Shown here: piece by piece, positions 8,105 to 41,548 of the stretch | How the letters are laid out: each line of letters opens with the position of its first letter | Numbering within the stretch: the first letter of the stretch is position 1 | NCBI GenBank assembly: GCA_001784475.1 | Contig: MFRE01000022.1 | Location: 44,234 to 108,233, forward strand | Length of the DNA stretch: 64,000 nucleotides | Reading direction: 5' to 3' | From: Candidatus Magasanikbacteria bacterium RIFOXYD2_FULL_41_14 | Lineage (GTDB): Bacteria > Patescibacteriota > Patescibacteriia > Magasanikbacterales > GWA2-37-8 | Notes under the pieces: generated by a model | What the model was told of the DNA's origin: nothing | What the model saw: only the letters and a program-made list of their open reading frames with translations | The model's database searches: none | Made by a program: the position numbers and the translations under genes

Positions 8105-8177
8105 TGTCATTCCCGCGAAAGCGGGAATCCAGACGTTGGTCGTCGGCCATTGGATCCCCGCTTTCGCGGGGATGACA
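8105..8177. repeat. MITE-like inverted-repeat element (GTCATTCCCGCGAAAGCGGGAATCC...GGATCCCCGCTTTCGCGGGGATGAC)
   Basis: Terminal inverted repeats, two internal hairpins and a GGATCC core. Same family as the copies listed below. Confidence 0.6.
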
Positions 8178-32480: not shown

Positions 32481-33848
32481 ATGAAAAATCATCACATGGT
32501 TTTATTGCGCGTTTTAGGATTAGCGGTTGTAGTTTTAGTATTTTCCCCAGTGGCTGTATTTTGCTACGACGTTTATGGTGGCGGTTATGATTCTTACACT
32601 GGCTCTTATGATTCCTATGGTGTGGATTATGATAACTCAGCCTGGACCCCGTCAGTGCCGTCTACCGACAATTCTTATTCGTCCGGAGACACAGCAGGCA
32701 TTAGCGGACCAACTGGCTCGGGTAGTTCCAGTGGTGTGGCAGTTAACGCCACTACTAAAGTGGATTTTAAAGACACCAGTGGTTCTGGCTATGGAGCGGT
32801 TTTTTATAATTCTTCGGGTGCTTTGGAAAGTCGCGCGTTGGTTGATTGGGATAAACGCTTGGTATATGTTAAATCTGGCTCTAAACCAGATTACACAAAA
32901 GTGGTGGGGGAAGTTAAAGCAATCAATTGGATTACTGATGGCTATGAGGGTAGTTGGGGGTATATTGATACTACGGCTTTAGAAAATTATTTTAAACCAG
33001 TTACTCCGGCGCCTGCTTCGACTCCAGCAGTTTCTTCGGGGCCTAATTTTGCATCATCTGCCCCGACGGGTGCGCGTTTGGTGACAATTAGTAATGGCTA
33101 TGTTTATGATACCAATACTAAAGCGGAAATTAGTTACGCGATGCCAGAAGAATCCAGCGGAAAAATATACAATCGTGAGAGTAGTGCGGAAATTGGTAAA
33201 ATGTTGTCGGTGACAACTGGGTATTTAGATGAATATACTAATGTGTCATCTGGTTCCGTCGCTACTGGTTCCAATAACTCCGGCACGGGGACACAATCAT
33301 CCAGTGCAACAACACCAACGGCCGGTACAGTGTCTAATAACATTGCTAATACTGCCACTAAAGTTGCCACGCCAGTTACAGCAAGCAACAATTCGTCAGG
33401 TGCAATGTCGGCGACAGTGGCTAACGAAGCCGTTTCGGTAGAAAATTCTAATACTTCAATTCCAACCGGAGCCCAAGAGGTGTTTGCTAAATATGCGGAC
33501 GGCTCTTATGTTGTTTATGATAAAGCCACGGGTGCACCAATACCAGAGGCCTACTATAATGGTACTGATAAAACTATTTATTATGGAAATTCCGATCAGA
33601 CATATGGGAAAATATTGGCCAATAATGCTGGATATGTGGAACCAAACATGTTTGATGTTGCGACTAGTGGTGAGGCGATGATAGCGACTAGAAGTACTGA
33701 AGAGGCGACTTCAAATAGTGCGTCGCCTGATTCTAGTAAAAAAGTTCAAGCGGTTGGGATTGGAGCGGCGATGGGAAATTTAGTAAAAGCAGTGACAAAT
33801 GTTTTTTCAGAATTATTTAAATCAATATTTAGTATTTTTAAAAAGTAA
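32481..33848 (+). CDS. secreted Ser/Thr/Gly/Tyr-rich low-complexity protein
   Basis: 455 aa, signal peptide MKNHHMVLLRVLGLAVVVLVFSPVAVFC. Confidence 0.45.
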   Translation: MKNHHMVLLRVLGLAVVVLVFSPVAVFCYDVYGGGYDSYTGSYDSYGVDYDNSAWTPSVPSTDNSYSSGDTAGISGPTGSGSSSGVAVNATTKVDFKDTSGSGYGAVFYNSSGALESRALVDWDKRLVYVKSGSKPDYTKVVGEVKAINWITDGYEGSWGYIDTTALENYFKPVTPAPASTPAVSSGPNFASSAPTGARLVTISNGYVYDTNTKAEISYAMPEESSGKIYNRESSAEIGKMLSVTTGYLDEYTNVSSGSVATGSNNSGTGTQSSSATTPTAGTVSNNIANTATKVATPVTASNNSSGAMSATVANEAVSVENSNTSIPTGAQEVFAKYADGSYVVYDKATGAPIPEAYYNGTDKTIYYGNSDQTYGKILANNAGYVEPNMFDVATSGEAMIATRSTEEATSNSASPDSSKKVQAVGIGAAMGNLVKAVTNVFSELFKSIFSIFKK

Positions 33849-33854
33849 AATTAT

Positions 33855-34274
33855 ATGAGTGATCATGAAGGCGGTAGTCAAGGCGGTAATCTAGTGGGTG
33901 GCGCAGACGCGGCGCCCGTGCGGGATTTGCCCAAAGGACGTTTGGTGACAATAGATGAGTTTTATACTCCTGATCCAGCTGAGCCGGCTCGCGCTTGGCA
34001 TAATTTTGTGGCTCATTTTGCCGGTGGAATGTTTGGTGATTCACATCACTCTAAAAAATATTATCAGGAATTTGCTGCTGAATATCCAGATTTGGCGGCC
34101 AAGTTATGTGATGCCGTTCAGGAAATGCGTAAGCAAAAAGTTAATCATTTAGCTCAAATAAAAAGTGATTCACAATTAAGACAGATGGTCTATGATGCCT
34201 ATGCAATAATGAAAAGGCATGGGGCCAATGATCAGGAATTGTTTGGCTTTGGTTTTGAAACTTTAAAAGATTAA
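33855..34274 (+). CDS. hypothetical protein
   Basis: 139 aa, no motif. Confidence 0.4.
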   Translation: MSDHEGGSQGGNLVGGADAAPVRDLPKGRLVTIDEFYTPDPAEPARAWHNFVAHFAGGMFGDSHHSKKYYQEFAAEYPDLAAKLCDAVQEMRKQKVNHLAQIKSDSQLRQMVYDAYAIMKRHGANDQELFGFGFETLKD

Positions 34275-34301
34275 TCTATATAAAACTTAGAATACAATTT
34301 T

Positions 34302-34943
34302 ATGTCTGTAAATAAATATTTAAGTGTGGTTGTAGCTGGTATTTTTTTAGTTGGTGTCGGGTGCCAGAGAAACGCGCCGTTATCCGCCGATTTACCACCC
34401 GCACCAGTTAGTCAAGTCCCGAGCGCCGTATCATTACCACAGGCAGTGGTGCCTTCAGCCCCGATTCAATCCGCTCCGGCCAGTCAAACTACTGTAGTTG
34501 CGGCCCCATTTTGTCCATTAACAGTGGATCTAGTTAGTCAATTTTGCACTGTTAAAGGTGGGTTAGAAATTGGTGCATATGGATGTTCGTTAAACAGCAA
34601 AGTATCTGGTATGCCGTTTGTTTTGTTTGCTACCCAAGGTTGGGCGGATAATATGCGCGAACAAATGGCAGGCGCTTATAATGCCGCAAAATTTGGAGAT
34701 GTACCAATGCCAACGTGGAACGAAAGCGGAGTGGGAGATTTAGCTTTTTTAACACCGCTAATTGGCCTTAATGAGGATGCGGCCAGGTCCACTGTTGAAA
34801 GCAAAGGTTATAATTTGTATATTAAAAAAGGTGGCACACTCTATCAATTTGTAGGTTATGGCAAGGATTTCCCCAGTCAGGATGCTGGAAATTGTTCGGT
34901 AGAACAGATGAAAAAAATGGCGCAGAAGATATTGAGTGAGTAA
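34302..34943 (+). CDS. putative lipoprotein
   Basis: 213 aa, signal peptide with lipobox LVGVGC. Confidence 0.5.
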   Translation: MSVNKYLSVVVAGIFLVGVGCQRNAPLSADLPPAPVSQVPSAVSLPQAVVPSAPIQSAPASQTTVVAAPFCPLTVDLVSQFCTVKGGLEIGAYGCSLNSKVSGMPFVLFATQGWADNMREQMAGAYNAAKFGDVPMPTWNESGVGDLAFLTPLIGLNEDAARSTVESKGYNLYIKKGGTLYQFVGYGKDFPSQDAGNCSVEQMKKMAQKILSE

Positions 34944-34972
34944 TATTTTTTTATTCGTTTATTTAAATATTT

Positions 34973-35752
34973 ATGTCTGAACGCGGACCAAAATTTATTC
35001 CTCCAGTGGAAAAAAGTTTGCTTAGAAAAAATGTTGAAAGAGTCGGCGTTGGTTTGGCGGTGGTGCTGGCCGGTTTAGGGGTTAAGAAATTTAGTGAATC
35101 TGGAACAGAAATTGTACGAGCCAATATTCCACCACAGCCTGCCAAATTGGTGGGGGAAGCAACAGGCGTAAATGAAAGTAAACAAGCGGTCCTTGCTGAT
35201 TTGCGTCGGAAAATCAAGAATGATTCATTGGGAGGCAACGCTGGTGATGTTTTTGGCGGAGGACTTCCGCCAGAAGACGGCGAGGCAGTGATTGAAACTC
35301 CCGTAGAAAAGCAAGCGCGGTTATTTAAAAATGTTTTTGAAGAAGTTAAAAAAGTCTTTCCTAATGCTGTTTTGCGATCGGAATTGGATGATGCTATGGC
35401 AGAGGTGTTGGATTCTGATCCTGATGATTCGGCGGCAACAGCCAGAGGGCGCGAATTGGAAAATAGAGAAAGGGAATCTGTGGTGGTCGGGGATTATTCA
35501 GATTTTGCTAATCACGATAAGTATCAGATTAAAATTTCTATGCCTGTTGCAGAACAGCAGTTGGCTGGTAGTAGGATGTATTTTTTCTTAGATCCATTAG
35601 TAGACGAAGGTAAGGTGTCAGTATCTTTTTCAGGGGGTGGGTCTGAAAAAAAAGTGGTGGATCCGAAAGATTTGCCAAGTTTAATGCAGGATGCTTATGT
35701 CGCTTATGTGGCGCATTTAGAAGAGGTTAAAGAGCGAGAAAGCGCAGAGTGA
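34973..35752 (+). CDS. membrane-anchored hypothetical protein
   Basis: 259 aa, N-terminal TM VGVGLAVVLAGLGV. Confidence 0.45.
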   Translation: MSERGPKFIPPVEKSLLRKNVERVGVGLAVVLAGLGVKKFSESGTEIVRANIPPQPAKLVGEATGVNESKQAVLADLRRKIKNDSLGGNAGDVFGGGLPPEDGEAVIETPVEKQARLFKNVFEEVKKVFPNAVLRSELDDAMAEVLDSDPDDSAATARGRELENRERESVVVGDYSDFANHDKYQIKISMPVAEQQLAGSRMYFFLDPLVDEGKVSVSFSGGGSEKKVVDPKDLPSLMQDAYVAYVAHLEEVKERESAE

Positions 35753-35756
35753 TAAG

Positions 35757-35986
35757 TTGACTTTTTATTAGATTTATATTAGTATTAATATATAAGCGCC
35801 ACACCCGTTATCAGCGGGAAATTCCCACATTGGATGCGTTAGAGGCAGAAGTCCCGGCTGGGTCGGGATGTAGAACCTCTCGGGCAAGCCCGTTAAAGCT
35901 GTAAATAAGTTAAAGCCACAGATGGTACCGTCCGCCGAATAGGCGCGACTCTGGGCACGCATTTTTTGCGTGTTTTTATTTTTTAC
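35757..35986 (+). promoter_or_regulatory. promoter plus ~190-nt structured leader with terminator upstream of ileS (candidate T-box-like riboswitch)
   Basis: TTGACT (35757-62)-17-TAGTAT. 5' hairpin CCCG-UUAUCAG-CGGG with AUC (Ile codon) in the loop at 35810-12. UGGUACCG at 35923-30 matches the T-box core. Terminator hairpin plus U-tract at 35954-35986. Confidence 0.3.
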
Positions 35987-36054
35987 TGTCATGCTGAACT
36001 TGTTTCAGCATCCCTTAAATGGCCTGGGATCCTGAAGCAAGTTCAGGATGACAA
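35987..36054. repeat. MITE-like element (GTCATGCTGAACTTGTTTCAGCATCCCTT...GGGATCCTGAAGCAAGTTCAGGATGAC)
   Basis: Read directly. Lies between the leader terminator and the ileS start. Confidence 0.6.
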
Positions 36055-36069
36055 CTATAACTAGTTTTT

Positions 36070-38973
36070 ATGTATAACGCCGATCAAAACGAACTCGAAA
36101 TATTAAAATATTGGCAAGACCACCAATGTTTTGAAAAATCAGTCGAACAACGTCCGGAAGATAAGCCCTATGTTTTTTATGATGGACCACCGTTTGCGAC
36201 CGGTCTGCCACATTATGGGCATATTTTGAGTTCGGTAATTAAAGATGTGGTGCCACGTTATTGGACCATGAAGGGCTATCGCGTGCGCCGGCGTTGGGGT
36301 TGGGATTGTCACGGGCTTCCAATTGAAAATATTATCGAAAAGGAATTAAAGATTTCTGGCAAGAAAGATATTGAAAATAAGTTGGGAGTTGATAAATTCA
36401 ACGATGCCTGTCGTTCCAAGGTTTTGACGTACACCAAAGAATGGAAAAAAATGGTGGACCGTGAAGGGCGCTGGATTGAATTTGATAATGCTTACAAAAC
36501 CATGGATCCCACTTATATGGAATCGGTTTGGTGGGCTTTGAAAACCATGTGGGACAAAAATTTGATCTACAAAGGCCGTAAAATGCTGATGTTTTGTCCG
36601 CGTTGTGAAACTCCGGTATCAAAAGCGGAAATCGCAATGGATAATAGTTATAAGGATATTACCGAATTGTCATTGACTGTCAGATTTAAATTGTTGGATG
36701 AGCCTGACACCTTTTTATTAGCTTGGACCACAACTCCTTGGACATTGCCAGCCCACATGTTTATTGCCGTTGGGCCAAAGATTGAATATGTAAAAGTAAA
36801 ATATAATAATGAATTTTATATTGTCGGTAAAAAACTGTTGGGTAATGTTTTTAAAGGTAAGGATTATGAGGTGGTACAAGATTTGTCCGCCAAGGATTTG
36901 GTCGGTAAAGAATATGAAGCTTTGTTTCCGTTTTATGCTAATATTAAAAACGGTTTGAAAGTTTGGGAGTATGAGAATGTGAGCGACGAAGAGGGGACAG
37001 GTCTAGTACATATGGCTGCGTTTGGCGATCAGGAAGAATTGGAATTTATGAACAAGAACGAGATTGAGACAATAGTTCATTTAAGTACCAAGGGGGAATT
37101 TGTTGAAGGTACTGGTTTTCTCACAGGTAAAAATATGAAGTCGCAGGATCGTGAAATCCGGAAATATTTGGAAGAGAATGACAAACTTTTTAGCGCTGTA
37201 AACTATACCCACTCCTATCCGTTTTGTTGGCGTTGTGATACACAGCTATTTTATAATCCAACAGTGGCTTGGTTTATCAACATCCAAAAAGTAAAATCAC
37301 GTCTGAGTGAGCTGAACGAGAAAATTAATTGGTTCCCAGATCATTTAAAACATGGGCGATTTTTGAATATTTTAGAGACCGCACCCGATTGGAATATTTC
37401 GCGTAATCGTTATTGGGCCACACCCTTGCCTTTTTGGCAATGTGAAAATGAAAAATGTGGCGAGTATGTTTGTGTGGGTAGTGTCAGCAAATTAAAAGAA
37501 ATGGCAGTTAATTTTAGTGAAGTTTATCAAACCGATAAAGTGGCAGATTTGGATTTGCATAAAGACAAAATGGATAAAATAAAATTAAAATGTGCGAAAT
37601 GCGAGAGCCAAATGACCCGCATACCTGAAGTAATTGATTGTTGGGTGGAAGCGGCCTCGATGCCTTTTGCTGAATTTCATTATCCTTTTGAAAATAGGGA
37701 AGTTTTTGAAAAACGTTTTCCGGGTCAGTTTATTGCTGAGTACATTGCTCAAACACGTGCTTGGTTTTATTATATGCACGCGATGTCGGTATTATTGTTC
37801 GATAACATTAGTTTTGAGAATGTGGTTTGTACCGGCACGATTTTAAATGATAAGGGCGAAAAGTTGTCTAAGTCAAAAATGAATTATACTGATCCTTGGG
37901 TGATTATTGAGCAGTATGGCGTAGATGCTTTGCGATATTATTTACTGACGAGCGTAGTTTTGCAGGCCGAGAATTTATTTTTTAATGACCGCGAAGTAAA
38001 AGAAATTTACAACAAGGTCGTTAATATGCTGTGGAACGTGGTGGAGTTTTATAAGATGTATGCGGTGGAGCCGGACGTATCTGATGAAAAAGCGAGAAAA
38101 CAAGTCAGTGATAATATTTTGGACAAATGGATTTTGACCAAAGTGTCGGTGCTTGTCAAAGAAGTGACGGAAAATATGGATAATTATGACACAGTGAAAG
38201 CCGGCCGTCCACTTAAGGAGTTTATTGATGAATTATCTACTTGGTATGTCCGCCGTTCACGTGATCGGTTTAAGGGCGAAGATATGGCTGATAAAATAAA
38301 CGCGAGTAATACCTTGCGCCACGTTTTAGTTTTGTTATCTAAATTAATGGCGCCGTTTACGCCATTTATCGCGGAAAAAATTTATTTGGAATTAACCGGT
38401 GGTAGGTACAAGGAATCAGTACATTTGGAAGATTGGCCAGAAATTAGAAAATCGGATGAAGAAGTTTTAGCGAATATGACCACAGTACGTAAAGTGGTAG
38501 AATTGGGCCTGTCACTTCGCGCTGAAGCTGGTGTAAAAGTTAGGCAAGTTTTGGGTCGGGCGGCTTTGGAAGAAAATAAGTTATCACTGGAGTATTTAGA
38601 AATTGTTAAGGACGAATTAAATGTAAAAGAAGTGGTGGCAGAAATTAACCAAAAAGGTGTATGGGTTTCTAAAGAGGAAGGTGGGTTAAAAGTTTCCCTA
38701 GATATGGAGCTAACTCCAGAGTTAAAAAGAGAAGGATTGGTGCGCGAAGTGGTGCGCGCCATAAATCAATTGCGTAAGGAAAGTGGCCTGACAGTGAGCG
38801 ATCAGGTTAATTTGGTTTATGAGACAACTGATGAAGATCTATCTAGCGTCCTCGTGCAGTATGGCGATACTGTTAAAACCGCTGTTCTGGCCGCTTCTTT
38901 GGAGCCTGGCGTTGGCCAAACCGATTTGTTGGTAGATGGGCGCGCTTTGCGAGTTAGTTTGACTAAAATTTAG
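36070..38973 (+). CDS. ileS: isoleucyl-tRNA synthetase
   Basis: 967 aa. HYGH (PHYGHIL) and KMSKS (KLSKS) class I motifs, CP1 editing domain, C-terminal zinc-finger region. Confidence 0.95.
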   Translation: MYNADQNELEILKYWQDHQCFEKSVEQRPEDKPYVFYDGPPFATGLPHYGHILSSVIKDVVPRYWTMKGYRVRRRWGWDCHGLPIENIIEKELKISGKKDIENKLGVDKFNDACRSKVLTYTKEWKKMVDREGRWIEFDNAYKTMDPTYMESVWWALKTMWDKNLIYKGRKMLMFCPRCETPVSKAEIAMDNSYKDITELSLTVRFKLLDEPDTFLLAWTTTPWTLPAHMFIAVGPKIEYVKVKYNNEFYIVGKKLLGNVFKGKDYEVVQDLSAKDLVGKEYEALFPFYANIKNGLKVWEYENVSDEEGTGLVHMAAFGDQEELEFMNKNEIETIVHLSTKGEFVEGTGFLTGKNMKSQDREIRKYLEENDKLFSAVNYTHSYPFCWRCDTQLFYNPTVAWFINIQKVKSRLSELNEKINWFPDHLKHGRFLNILETAPDWNISRNRYWATPLPFWQCENEKCGEYVCVGSVSKLKEMAVNFSEVYQTDKVADLDLHKDKMDKIKLKCAKCESQMTRIPEVIDCWVEAASMPFAEFHYPFENREVFEKRFPGQFIAEYIAQTRAWFYYMHAMSVLLFDNISFENVVCTGTILNDKGEKLSKSKMNYTDPWVIIEQYGVDALRYYLLTSVVLQAENLFFNDREVKEIYNKVVNMLWNVVEFYKMYAVEPDVSDEKARKQVSDNILDKWILTKVSVLVKEVTENMDNYDTVKAGRPLKEFIDELSTWYVRRSRDRFKGEDMADKINASNTLRHVLVLLSKLMAPFTPFIAEKIYLELTGGRYKESVHLEDWPEIRKSDEEVLANMTTVRKVVELGLSLRAEAGVKVRQVLGRAALEENKLSLEYLEIVKDELNVKEVVAEINQKGVWVSKEEGGLKVSLDMELTPELKREGLVREVVRAINQLRKESGLTVSDQVNLVYETTDEDLSSVLVQYGDTVKTAVLAASLEPGVGQTDLLVDGRALRVSLTKI

Positions 38974-39124: not shown

Positions 39125-41548
39125 ATGAATGCTCATAATTACAAAAAAGATTTTGGCGGTAAAACGGTTTTAATTCTTAGTTCCGGCACAGAACGCAACC
39201 GCTTTGTTTTTAATGTTGTCAATCGTTTGGGTTTAAAAACAGTTGTGCTGAACGACCGTGTTAATTGGAGTAAGCGTTTAGCAGATGATTTTATTCTGGC
39301 AGATAATTTTAATCACGCGCAAGTTTTAAATGTCCTGCGTTCTTATTTTTTAAAACACAAAGTGGCCGGTGTTGTTACTTTTTCCGAAGAAAATGTTGAA
39401 CTTCTAACTAAAGTTTGTCATGAATTTAATTTTATTGGCAACGGTCGCACTACTGCCGGTTACTTGCGTAATAAATACGCGATGCGGCAACGGTTCGCGG
39501 CTTGGCAGATTGACCAGCCAAACTTCGCGCTGGTTACGAACGATAGTGAATTGCAGATTGCCATTGCCAAGGTTGGCTTTCCAGCGATTATAAAACCGGT
39601 GGCTGGCACTGGCGGCGATTTTGTAGTTAAGGTTACTGATAAACATAATGCTCAAGAAATTTTTGATTTTATTAAAAAAAATGCCACTCCTAAATTTGAT
39701 CCCATATTTTTTCAAAATCAATATCAATTTTTGTACGAAAAATATTTACCGGGGGCCGAGGTTAGCGTGGAGGCGGTAACTCAAAACGGTCAAACTGATG
39801 TGGTAGCGATTGTGGATAAGCAGACCGGAGATGAGCCTTATTTTGTGGATTATAAACACAGTTTGCCTTCAAAATTAGATAGCGAAGAGCAAGAGATGGT
39901 AGAACGGCTAGTGTTTGCGGCGCATCGCGCTTTGGGGATTATGAACGGGATAACTCATACGGAGATTATAATGAGAAAAGACCGGCCGGCAATAATTGAG
40001 GTGGCCGGACAGATGGGCAGTCAATATATTTGGGATGGGGTGCGTACTACCTGGGGAGTTGATTTGGTGGAGCAGGCGTTTCGGGTTGCTTTGGGGCTGC
40101 CTATTACTACTCATCAACGGGCTTTGGAGCCAAAAAAATACTGGGCTTGTCAATATTTAGAAATTGAAAAATCAGGGATTGTGGCGGCCATTCACGGTGC
40201 CGATGAGGTGGCCAAGATAAAAGGCGTAAGAGATTTGTATTTAGACAAAGAAGTTGGTGACGCGGTTTTAGTTCCGCCCTTAAGTTTTGACACGATTGGT
40301 TGGCTAGCGGCAGAAGGGGAGAGCCATTCGGAGGTGGATGATGTGGTGAGCGCAGGAGTGGATAAATTAGAAATCCAAACCATTTCTTTTGATGCTGAAT
40401 CATCTGTTGGCCAAAGTGAACGTCGGAATAATTTTTCATCGGCGTTTGTAATGAAGAAAAAATATCTGGCGCAGGCACGGGTGGAAAAATTGCGCCGTTT
40501 GGATATTAAAAATTTGCGCGGGTTGCACGTGGGTATTTTAGGCAATGTTTATAAAAATAATTCTAAAACCACGGAAAAAAATGAAATCGCCGGCGAACTT
40601 ATGTCGGTTGGCTACGGCGTTCAGAAAGTTTTGCAAGAGCGTGGTTACCGAGTGAGCTTTTTTGATATGAATGAAAGCCCTTTGCCTTTGGAAAAAATCC
40701 AAAAATCAGGTGTGGATATTATTTTTAATGTTTGTGAGCGTATTAATGATTCTAGCTTGCTTGAACCACACGCTGCGGCGGTTTTGGATATTTTACAGGT
40801 GCCTTATACCGGTTCCAACCCCTTAACTTTGGCTTTTTGTATTGATAAAATTAAAGTAAAAAAATTATTGTCTTATCATAATATTCCTACTGCCAAATTT
40901 GATGTGGCCTACACCATGGACGATAAAATTGACAGTGAGTTACGCTATCCGCTGATTGTTAAACCGGCTAACACTGACAATAGTATTGGTATTACCAATA
41001 AATCAGTTGTTAAAAATATAAAAGAATTAAACACGCAACTTCACGAGGTGATAGTGAAAGCCGGTCGGCCGGCGCTGGTGGAAGAATATATTGAAGGCGA
41101 CGAGTTTGATGTCTCTATTATTGGTAATGAGCAAGGTTTGGAAGTTTTACCATTATCGCGTTCTATTTTTGATAAAATGCCGAAAGGTTATTGGCATATT
41201 TATCCGTTTGAATCAAAGTTTGGTGATGTTCCCGCTTATGATCAAATTAAATTGCAACGGCCAGCGAAGGTGGTCACTAAATTATCTAAATTAATCACTG
41301 AAATTGCGATTGATACTTATAATATTCTAGGGGCGCATGATTACGCGCGGGTGGAGATGCGGATAGATAAAGATCACAATCCATATGTGATTGAGTTAAA
41401 CCCTAATCCGTCTATTGGCGCTGATACTTGCACTGCAAAATGTGCGGCTTTGGCTGGTTATGATTATGGTGATTTTTTGGAGTTGATTTTAAGTTCAGCC
41501 ATTAAACGTTATCAAAATAGGCCACCTTTTTCTCATTTGAGCAATTAA
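39125..41548 (+). CDS. tandem ATP-grasp ligase fusion; C-terminal half is D-Ala-D-Ala-ligase-like
   Basis: 807 aa. First half FPAIIKPVAGTGGDFVVKV... is ATP-grasp. Second half resembles the Ddl N-terminal domain (HVGILG...) plus ATP-grasp (PLIVKPAN...YARVEMRIDKDHNPYVIELNPNPSIG). Confidence 0.6.
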   Translation: MNAHNYKKDFGGKTVLILSSGTERNRFVFNVVNRLGLKTVVLNDRVNWSKRLADDFILADNFNHAQVLNVLRSYFLKHKVAGVVTFSEENVELLTKVCHEFNFIGNGRTTAGYLRNKYAMRQRFAAWQIDQPNFALVTNDSELQIAIAKVGFPAIIKPVAGTGGDFVVKVTDKHNAQEIFDFIKKNATPKFDPIFFQNQYQFLYEKYLPGAEVSVEAVTQNGQTDVVAIVDKQTGDEPYFVDYKHSLPSKLDSEEQEMVERLVFAAHRALGIMNGITHTEIIMRKDRPAIIEVAGQMGSQYIWDGVRTTWGVDLVEQAFRVALGLPITTHQRALEPKKYWACQYLEIEKSGIVAAIHGADEVAKIKGVRDLYLDKEVGDAVLVPPLSFDTIGWLAAEGESHSEVDDVVSAGVDKLEIQTISFDAESSVGQSERRNNFSSAFVMKKKYLAQARVEKLRRLDIKNLRGLHVGILGNVYKNNSKTTEKNEIAGELMSVGYGVQKVLQERGYRVSFFDMNESPLPLEKIQKSGVDIIFNVCERINDSSLLEPHAAAVLDILQVPYTGSNPLTLAFCIDKIKVKKLLSYHNIPTAKFDVAYTMDDKIDSELRYPLIVKPANTDNSIGITNKSVVKNIKELNTQLHEVIVKAGRPALVEEYIEGDEFDVSIIGNEQGLEVLPLSRSIFDKMPKGYWHIYPFESKFGDVPAYDQIKLQRPAKVVTKLSKLITEIAIDTYNILGAHDYARVEMRIDKDHNPYVIELNPNPSIGADTCTAKCAALAGYDYGDFLELILSSAIKRYQNRPPFSHLSN

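Follow-up and report, generated by a model that had tools for sequence, protein, structure and literature searches.

A promoter-driven leader RNA upstream of ileS in a Magasanikbacteria genome is probably a reduced T-box that senses tRNA-Ile

We analysed 64,000 nucleotides (nt) of the forward strand of contig MFRE01000022.1 from Candidatus Magasanikbacteria bacterium RIFOXYD2_FULL_41_14, a genome of the candidate phyla radiation (CPR), and describe here a putative T-box leader RNA at positions 35757-35984 of this 64-kb stretch (hereafter the window). The leader lies upstream of ileS (36070-38973, + strand; ATG at 36070), which encodes a class I isoleucyl-tRNA synthetase of 967 aa with a tRNA-synt_1 match (E = 1.8e-119) and a DUF5915 domain at the C-terminus. 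The closest matches of this IleS are 58-63% identical and come from metagenome-assembled genomes of Candidatus Magasanikiibacteriota. The intergenic region between ileS and the preceding hypothetical open reading frame (ORF; 34973-35752, no Pfam match) spans 317 nt, and the leader region within it appeared to be devoid of coding potential, the sole overlapping ORF being one of 72 aa on the minus strand.

All parts of the leader described below lie on the + strand. Its 5' end is marked by a sigma-70-like promoter (35757-35785) composed of TTGACT (35757-35762), a 17-nt spacer and TAGTAT (35780-35785), which matches the consensus at nine of 12 positions and from which transcription would start at around 35792. 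No other promoter-like site was found on the + strand between the terminator and the ileS ATG. The 3' end is formed by an intrinsic terminator (35953-35984), in which a hairpin at 35953-35975 (GGGCACGCA, the loop UUUUU and UGCGUGUUU; six Watson-Crick and three G.U pairs) is followed by the U-rich tract UUAUUUUUU.

The first part of the predicted transcript resembles the decoding half of a T-box. The Stem I domain (35795-35840) is closed by a helix present in the centroid fold, P0 (AGCGC at 35795-35799 with GCGUU at 35836-35840), which encloses an ultrashort specifier hairpin (35804-35818) legible in the sequence as CCCG (35804-35807), the loop UUAUCAG (35808-35814) and CGGG (35815-35818). This 4-bp hairpin is all that represents Stem I; the long Stem I of T-boxes with a kink-turn (K-turn), an AG bulge and a distal loop elbow platform was not found. 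The loop displays the isoleucine codon AUC (35810-35812) followed by the conserved 3' purine, A (35813), and the specifier thus matches the aminoacyl-tRNA synthetase (aaRS) gene downstream, precedes a purine and carries C in its third position, being consistent with the 'C rule' of T-boxes (PMC7583486). The rest of the domain is a variable insert (35819-35835), in which several relatives introduced below (L005, L006, L022 and others) have additional hairpins.

Stem II (35841-35880), delineated from the sequence, the fold and the alignment of the block to a covariance model, comprises a lower helix, AGAGG/CCUCU, and an upper hairpin, UCCCGGC-UGG-GUCGGGA, separated by an S-turn-like internal loop (CAGAAG at 35846-35851 opposite UGUAGAA at 35869-35875), for which the consensus in the family is GGAAGAA ... 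AGUAGA(A/C)C. Stem II is followed by the Stem IIA hairpin (35881-35900, from the sequence and the same alignment) made of CGG (35881-35883) and CCG (35890-35892) with the loop GCAAGC, and the F-box CCGUUA (35890-35895) overlaps its 3' strand. AGC (35887-35889) in the loop can pair with GCU (35898-35900), forming the IIB pseudoknot. The S-turn of Stem II, the IIA/B pseudoknot and the F-box of T-boxes are therefore all present in the window.

A purine-rich linker, GUAAAUAAGUUAAA (35901-35914), is the counterpart of the RRRxG ... AA string found on either side of Stem III in other T-boxes (motif as defined in PMC7583486); the string is partly retained as AAGUU-AA-AGCCACAGA and runs straight into helix A1. 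The linker leads to the discriminator, or antiterminator (35915-35956), which we delineated from the sequence and the fold. Helix A1 pairs GCC(A)CAGA (35915-35922) with UCUGGGC (35950-35956), helix A2 pairs GUCCGCC (35930-35936) with GGCG(C)GAC (35942-35949) around the loop GAAUA, and between the two helices lies the T-box bulge UGGUACC (35923-35929), whose UGGU adjoins A1. The segment UGGUACCG occupies 35923-35930.

Most of these parts had been proposed in a first-pass annotation, which read a reduced T-box with a specifier hairpin like those of actinobacterial ileS T-boxes from the window alone. The near-consensus promoter TTGACT-17-TAGTAT, the CCCG-UUAUCAG-CGGG hairpin presenting AUC and then A, a nested helix with GA-containing internal loops (Stem II, with its purine-rich loops), a segment matching the T-box antiterminator core (UGGUACCG) and a terminator hairpin with a U-run before ileS were all found at the positions given above, and the comparative evidence described below supports the reading module by module.

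For comparison, we sampled 80 CPR loci encoding relatives of IleS (denoted by L numbers). With the intergenic region as the query, blastn and nhmmer detected homology in the sequence that precedes ileS in L004-L007 and L022. Many Saccharibacteria have an exact match of 15 nt to GATGGTACCGTCCGC in front of ileS, and a motif scan located GAUGGUACC at the same side of the gene in more than 60 loci. The combination of a 4-bp stem with a 7-nt loop, AUC at loop positions 3-5 and nearly always A after it, recurred in ~60 ileS loci, where the AUC hairpin precedes the UGGNACC motif by 108-144 nt; across ~60 other CPR genomes, the spacing upstream of ileS is typically ~115-130 nt. We then used a covariance model, R1, which was built from a MAFFT alignment of 35 Saccharibacteria leaders and excluded the window. 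R1 matched the window at 35808-35967 on the + strand (25 bits, E = 3.1e-5), the only significant match on either strand of the 64 kb; a minus-strand match (1162-1318, E = 0.12) falls within a gyrase-like coding region, has no bulge and was dismissed as noise. In 71 of the 80 loci, R1 found exactly one match upstream of ileS on the + strand, scoring 35-166 bits. Leaders were present in essentially all Saccharibacteria-type loci sampled, in the window, and in L004-L007 and L069. No leader was found in L008-L011. A copy of GGUGGUACCAC located 187 nt upstream of ileS in L001 is inside a coding region and was not counted as a leader.

The family also shares its transcriptional setting. A match to TATAAT at five or more of six positions occurs within 36 nt upstream of 53 of the 71 leaders, as opposed to 12% of random positions. 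In a subset of the Saccharibacteria leaders (L068:3700-3745, L042, L047, L071 and L073), the best -10 element is 20-29 nt upstream, not 9-14 nt, and an extra GC-rich hairpin followed by U's (e.g., GAGGACGUAAAGACGUCCUCAUUUUU) lies between the -10 element and the K-turn. The leader itself is on the same strand as, and upstream of, ileS or the ileS-containing operon in all 71 loci that have it. In many loci the distance to ileS is 300-1100 nt, and other ORFs intervene: a hypothetical ORF of ~298 aa in L007 (3160-4000), a four-helix-bundle-like ORF of 117 aa in L006 (3610-3963), and ORFs of 79 aa and 184 aa, the latter acetyltransferase-like, in L016 (3193-3962). In such loci, the leader would control small operons of varying content.

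This linkage bears on whether the transcript is instead a stand-alone, trans-acting small RNA gene that neighbours ileS by coincidence. Such a gene would be expected to have a promoter and an intrinsic terminator and to lack coding potential, as the leader does. Nevertheless, a position always immediately upstream of ileS or its operon and on the same strand (71/71 loci), the lack of a second copy in the ~870 kb searched with R1, and the match of every module to a cis-acting T-box make this explanation extremely improbable. We also dismissed a reduced RNase P, signal recognition particle (SRP) or 6S RNA, which had been considered on account of by-eye resemblances (GAGGCAGAAGUCCCGG, AGAUGGUACCGUCCGCC and GGGAUGUAG): these families gave no Rfam match at E <= 10, the segments in question are parts of local hairpins, and the comparative data agree with a T-box. 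A minus-strand RNA was rejected as well; this strand folds slightly better (z = -2.8 versus -1.5 for the plus strand), but the covariance-model matches, U-tracts and promoters are all on the plus strand.

The T-box identity of the family is most directly seen in L041, a Saccharibacteria locus. In a targeted search of 311 nt, the Rfam T-box model RF00230 aligned over its full length (1-219) to L041:3762-3921 with 34.8 bits and E = 2.3e-6. The alignment covers the K-turn (GAU.GA ... GAG), the AGUA S-turn of Stem II, the IIA hairpin with a CGUUA F-box, the AGUG purine string, Stem III and AAaUaGGGUGGUACCGCG, the only departure being upper Stem I, where a 7-nt loop stands in place of 78 model positions. 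The Magasanikbacteria-type leader of L004 scored 15.6 bits (E = 0.12). The gathering score of RF00230, 93 bits, is far above those of the leaders, and none of 13 loci reached it, so that these leaders are never annotated. In E-value searches of 65 kb at six loci, the T-box matches were lost to the filters, and only short targeted searches recovered RF00230 in the homologs.

Covariation supports every helix of the proposed structure. In a MAFFT alignment of 35 sequences that was not fitted to any structure, 87.9% of the cells were paired, in contrast to 73.8 +/- 0.7% after shuffling (0 of 500 shuffles as high) and to 33-47% when the 3' partners were slid by 1-3 columns. The corresponding value in a 73-sequence alignment was 92%, which leans toward the structure because this alignment was fitted to R1. 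The specifier stem was paired at 100% (35 sequences) and 99.3% (73 sequences), with compensatory changes at all four pairs; its variants include GUGG/CCAC, GCGG/CCGC, CCCG/CGGG, GAGG/CCUC, GUAG/CUAC and ACAG/CUGU. Double changes were also seen at three of three pairs in the P0-equivalent helix of the relatives (76% paired) and at five of five pairs in the lower helix of Stem II (84% paired). IIA was 93.5% paired in the 73-sequence alignment, and the F-box consensus of the family is CCGUWA. The IIB pairing was outside the model: the 3' part of the IIA loop pairs with a tetranucleotide at a fixed position 4-6 nt past IIA, and the two sides covary (CGCU/AGCG, UCGG/CCGA, CCAG/CUGG, GCCU/AGGC, GAGU/ACUC and others), the best helix averaging 3.70 bp as compared with 2.92 +/- 0.08 bp when loops and partners were shuffled between sequences. 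In the discriminator, A1 and A2 were 99.5-100% and 93-94% paired, respectively, with many double changes, and A1 was 100% paired with double changes at four of six pairs in the 35-sequence alignment. The check that the first-pass annotation had suggested, an alignment of orthologous ileS upstream regions, thus turned out in its favour, as the AUC loop and the UGG motif are conserved and the helices are both conserved and covarying.

Bacterial tRNA-Ile carries a GAU anticodon and A73 as the discriminator base. In L025:3831, L035:3352 and L077:3360, the UGGU of the bulge is replaced by UGGC or UGGA; if these bulges are functional, G73 or U73 is predicted in the tRNA-Ile of these lineages.

The Saccharibacteria leaders (e.g., L041:3762-3939 and L012:3593-3771) are homologous to the leader in the window according to R1, and share with it the decoding half, the A1-bulge-A2 core, a promoter of their own and a U-tract terminator. 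They differ from it in possessing a K-turn of the form UGA ... GA and a Stem III of 8-9 bp flanked by AAGUG ... AA (78-99% paired in 35 Saccharibacteria leaders), and most of them have G·U, A-U or U-A at the A2 junction, whereas the pair in the window is G-C. In most Saccharibacteria, the 3' strand of Stem III can pair either with its own 5' strand or with a tail segment before the U-tract; in the latter case, A1 is prolonged by a helix of 11-12 bp, within which lies the entire A1-bulge-A2 unit. In the MAFFT alignment, this terminator/A1 helix was 96% paired, and 13 of its 17 pairs showed double changes. As both alternatives covary, the alignments support a putative two-state competition between Stem III and the base of the terminator in Saccharibacteria.

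In the window, the base of the terminator would compete with A1 instead. GGGC (35953-35956) is both the 5' end of the terminator and the 3' end of A1, an overlap of 4 nt. According to ViennaRNA, the full terminator of 9 bp has an energy of -11.2 kcal/mol and the 5 bp left with A1 closed have -5.9 kcal/mol, while the two overall states of the window are nearly iso-energetic (-25.3 and -24.9 kcal/mol). Such near-equal energies would be what a switch tipped by a ligand needs, though the overlap is small. An overlap of 3-4 nt between A1 and the terminator is kept in five of the six leaders that have no Stem III (the window, L004, L006, L007, L069 and, with variation, L005), being GGGC in the window, GGC in L004, L006 and L007, and CAG in L069. 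In the window, L004, L006, L007 and L069, AAGYN-AA is directly followed by A1 (AAGUU-AA in the window), and within the Stem III-less group A1 shows a compensatory change at its fourth pair (C-G in the window versus A-U in L007). Two further pairings seen in the window, one between the 5' strand of the terminator and the 3' strand of P0 and the other a GCCA/UGGU mini-hairpin of the minimum-free-energy fold, were discarded because neither is conserved in L004, L006 and L007. A metagenome scan with the pattern AAAGCNNMARGATGGTACCG for additional Stem III-less leaders yielded 62 matches, all of which were chance-like and in coding sequence, and no leader.

Several observations weigh against a working T-box in the window. 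RF00230 gave nothing there, either at the gathering threshold or at E <= 10 in searches of 601 nt and 200 nt. Only 14 nt (35901-35914) separate IIB from A1, so there is no Stem III, and R1 aligned to the window with its 21-position Stem III block deleted; Stem III has been regarded as indispensable for binding of the tRNA 3' end, and an antiterminator without it binds no appreciable tRNA (PMC7583486). The K-turn is degenerate (ACA ... AA, as opposed to UGA ... GA in the relatives). The A2 junction pair, G35930-C35949, is not the G·U pair by which canonical T-boxes sense the aminoacyl group sterically; G-C is found in all six Stem III-less leaders, the counts across the family being GU 31, UA 14, AU 13 and GC 7. 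As only 1 nt of the six Watson-Crick pairs of the terminator is shared with A1 and the overlap otherwise consists of three G·U positions, competition between A1 and the terminator would be weak. The closest IleS relatives, L001-L003, have no leader and carry short intergenic regions with a promoter only, which means that the element is dispensable in some lineages. Finally, tRNA-Ile genes, which we sought for their anticodon and discriminator base, were found neither in the window nor in 60 loci.

As for the first of these points, the first-pass annotation had proposed a cmsearch with RF00230 and named the lack of a hit as a refutation. Taken literally, this is the outcome, but we consider the test too strict, as much of the model score comes from Stem III, which is missing from the window, and from Stem I, most of which is missing too. 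Homology between the window and leaders that do match RF00230 was detected by nhmmer and by R1.

Most of these points would be expected if the leader were a decayed T-box that no longer switches and whose remaining role is that of a leaky constitutive terminator or of a structured 5' untranslated region (UTR). The missing Stem III, the degenerate K-turn, the G-C pair at the A2 junction, the minimal overlap between A1 and the terminator, the lack of an RF00230 match and the lineages that cope without a leader (L001-L003) all suit such a relic. However, the window, L004, L006, L007 and L069 all share the Stem III-less layout, and the IleS proteins of the latter four are only 43-63% identical to that of the window. 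These lineages retain an intact AUC-A loop, UGGUACC bulge and F-box, A1 and Stem I have undergone compensatory changes, and the GGC(A)CG junction of A1 and the terminator is conserved as well. Motifs kept intact at such divergence are not expected of a relic, and we consider decay unlikely.

A leader that responds to another ligand, either the IleRS protein through tRNA mimicry or free isoleucine, was also considered. Genes for aaRSs are sometimes autoregulated via structured leaders, as in the tRNA mimicry of Escherichia coli thrS, and tRNA binding is a prediction here. Nevertheless, the loop shows the codon AUC and not the anticodon GAU, that is, the complement of tRNA-Ile rather than a mimic of it; the UGGN bulge beside A1 is a specific docking site for the NCCA 3' end (PMC7583486); and the RF00230 alignment spans the whole T-box architecture. 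A ligand other than tRNA-Ile is thus very improbable.

We conclude that the leader is very probably a T-box homolog of a conserved, reduced type, given the sequence elements, the homology within the CPR family, the covariation for every helix and the linkage to ileS, all of which were observed. It is reasonably likely that the leader has also remained a transcriptional switch that depends on tRNA-Ile and operates via the overlap of A1 and the terminator. Taken together, 35757-35984 is probably a promoter-driven, tRNA-Ile-sensing T-box leader that attenuates ileS transcription, our confidence in this combined explanation mostly reflecting that in the homology. In the decoding half (35795-35900), AUC followed by A in the ultrashort Stem I loop would form base pairs with the tRNA-Ile anticodon, GAU, and the Stem II S-turn and the IIA/B pseudoknot would back this codon-anticodon pairing, as in actinobacterial ileS T-boxes. 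In the sensing half (35915-35956), the 3'-ACCA end of tRNA-Ile, free when the tRNA is uncharged, would base-pair with UGGU and stack on A1. With A1 closed, GGGC (35953-35956) would be held, the terminator would shrink from 9 bp to 5 bp, and transcription would read through into ileS. Charged tRNA could not dock, leaving A1 unstabilised, and the full terminator would then stop transcription at the U-tract (35976-35984). In the Stem III-less version, tRNA binding, discrimination of the charging state and competition between A1 and the terminator are accordingly to be taken as predicted steps.

Between the terminator and ileS, in the 5' UTR of the latter, lies a 67-nt palindromic element (35987-36053, + strand) with 28-nt arms (TGTCAT ... 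ATGACA), a detail that the first-pass annotation had not seen. The palindrome does not belong to the T-box and is missing from the orthologous spacer of L004 (TTTTTTAC followed by TATG). A second palindrome in the window (8105-8177) shares the design of the first, with the termini TGTCAT ... ATGACA and with every arm of 27-28 nt being itself an internal hairpin; a similar sequence, CTGTCATTCCCGCGAAGGCGGGAATCCAGA, is carried by L013. The two palindromes look like members of an interspersed repeat family resembling miniature inverted-repeat transposable elements (MITE) or repetitive extragenic palindromic (REP) sequences, and Rfam returned only spurious microRNA matches for them. Upstream of the leader, four successive ORFs on the + strand (32481-35752; 455, 139, 213 and 259 aa) matched no Pfam family at E <= 0.001. 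Downstream of ileS, the gene at 39125-41548 encodes a protein of 807 aa with two ATP-grasp / D-Ala-D-Ala-ligase-like modules, an unusual fused architecture. The 64-kb window contains no tRNA genes of any kind, and no Rfam family reached the gathering threshold anywhere in it.

T-box riboswitches are a model case of RNA sensing RNA, usually described from Firmicutes and, as reduced translational versions, from Actinobacteria. We tentatively propose, with a confidence somewhat short of even, that the leaders described here represent an undescribed CPR clade of transcriptional ileS T-boxes with minimal parts and no elbow platform, of which the type in the window has also dispensed with Stem III and the G·U sensor, and that the clade uses a new terminator logic, in which Stem III competes with the terminator base or A1 overlaps the terminator by 3-4 nt. 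If functional, these leaders would contradict the generalisations that the platform is essential and Stem III indispensable, and would represent the smallest natural tRNA-charge sensor known. To our knowledge, almost nothing is known of gene regulation in the CPR, and an ileS-specific clade would extend the range of T-boxes to ultrasmall, host-dependent members of it (Saccharibacteria and part of Magasanikbacteria). The clade would be one more character common to the CPR and the Gram-positive phyla that bear T-boxes; many Saccharibacteria live on actinobacterial hosts, so that shared ancestry and transfer are both possible. As the clade is missed by standard annotation, surveys of riboswitches in the CPR undercount. 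An ultrashort Stem I combined with an intrinsic terminator and, in the lineage of the window, no Stem III offers a natural test of which T-box parts are required. It is also attractive to consider a compact tRNA-responsive switch as a possible tool in the emerging genetics of Patescibacteria, and T-boxes are being pursued as antibiotic targets.

The first-pass annotation had held that a T-box in a CPR-type genome would be noteworthy, and this stands: a full-text literature search found no paper reporting T-boxes in CPR, Patescibacteria, Saccharibacteria or TM7, its coverage being incomplete so that a prior description is possible. The preprint on TBDB does not mention candidate phyla.

Going by the descriptions in reviews, the closest known relatives are the ileS T-boxes of Actinobacteria with an ultrashort Stem I, such as those of Mycobacterium tuberculosis and Nocardia farcinica (Sherwood et al. 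2015, as described in PMC7583486 and PMC12647780). As far as these descriptions go, they share with the CPR leaders the gene, an apical Ile specifier and a short Stem I without the elbow platform (PMC7583486, PMC12647780), as well as the Stem II S-turn, the IIA/B pseudoknot and the UGGN bulge between A1 and A2. The actinobacterial leaders are described as translational, with a Shine-Dalgarno sequestrator, whereas the CPR leaders have an intrinsic terminator and a U-tract; no Shine-Dalgarno-like sequence is paired in the expression platform of the window, which sets it apart from the translational subclass. In the same descriptions Stem III is kept in the actinobacterial leaders, in contrast to the lineage of the window, where it is absent and the A2 junction pair is G-C.

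The transcriptional T-boxes of Firmicutes (RF00230; e.g., tyrS and glyQS of Bacillus subtilis) have in common with the CPR leaders a promoter-proximal position upstream of an aaRS gene, a specifier followed by a purine, the F-box and a U-tract terminator. They possess a long Stem I with an AG bulge and a distal loop platform, which the CPR leaders lack, and the window additionally differs from the canonical Firmicutes T-boxes in the lack of Stem III. The 5' strand of the canonical terminator consists of the 3' strands of A1 and A2 (PMC7583486). Unlike this arrangement, the terminator in the window has only 4 nt in common with A1, and in Saccharibacteria A1 and A2 lie within a terminator that recruits the Stem III 3' strand. 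The Stem I platform has been described as essential in transcriptional T-boxes and the discriminator core as essentially identical in all known T-boxes (PMC7583486). The CPR leaders, especially that in the window, depart from all three generalisations of the review, those on the platform, the core and Stem III.

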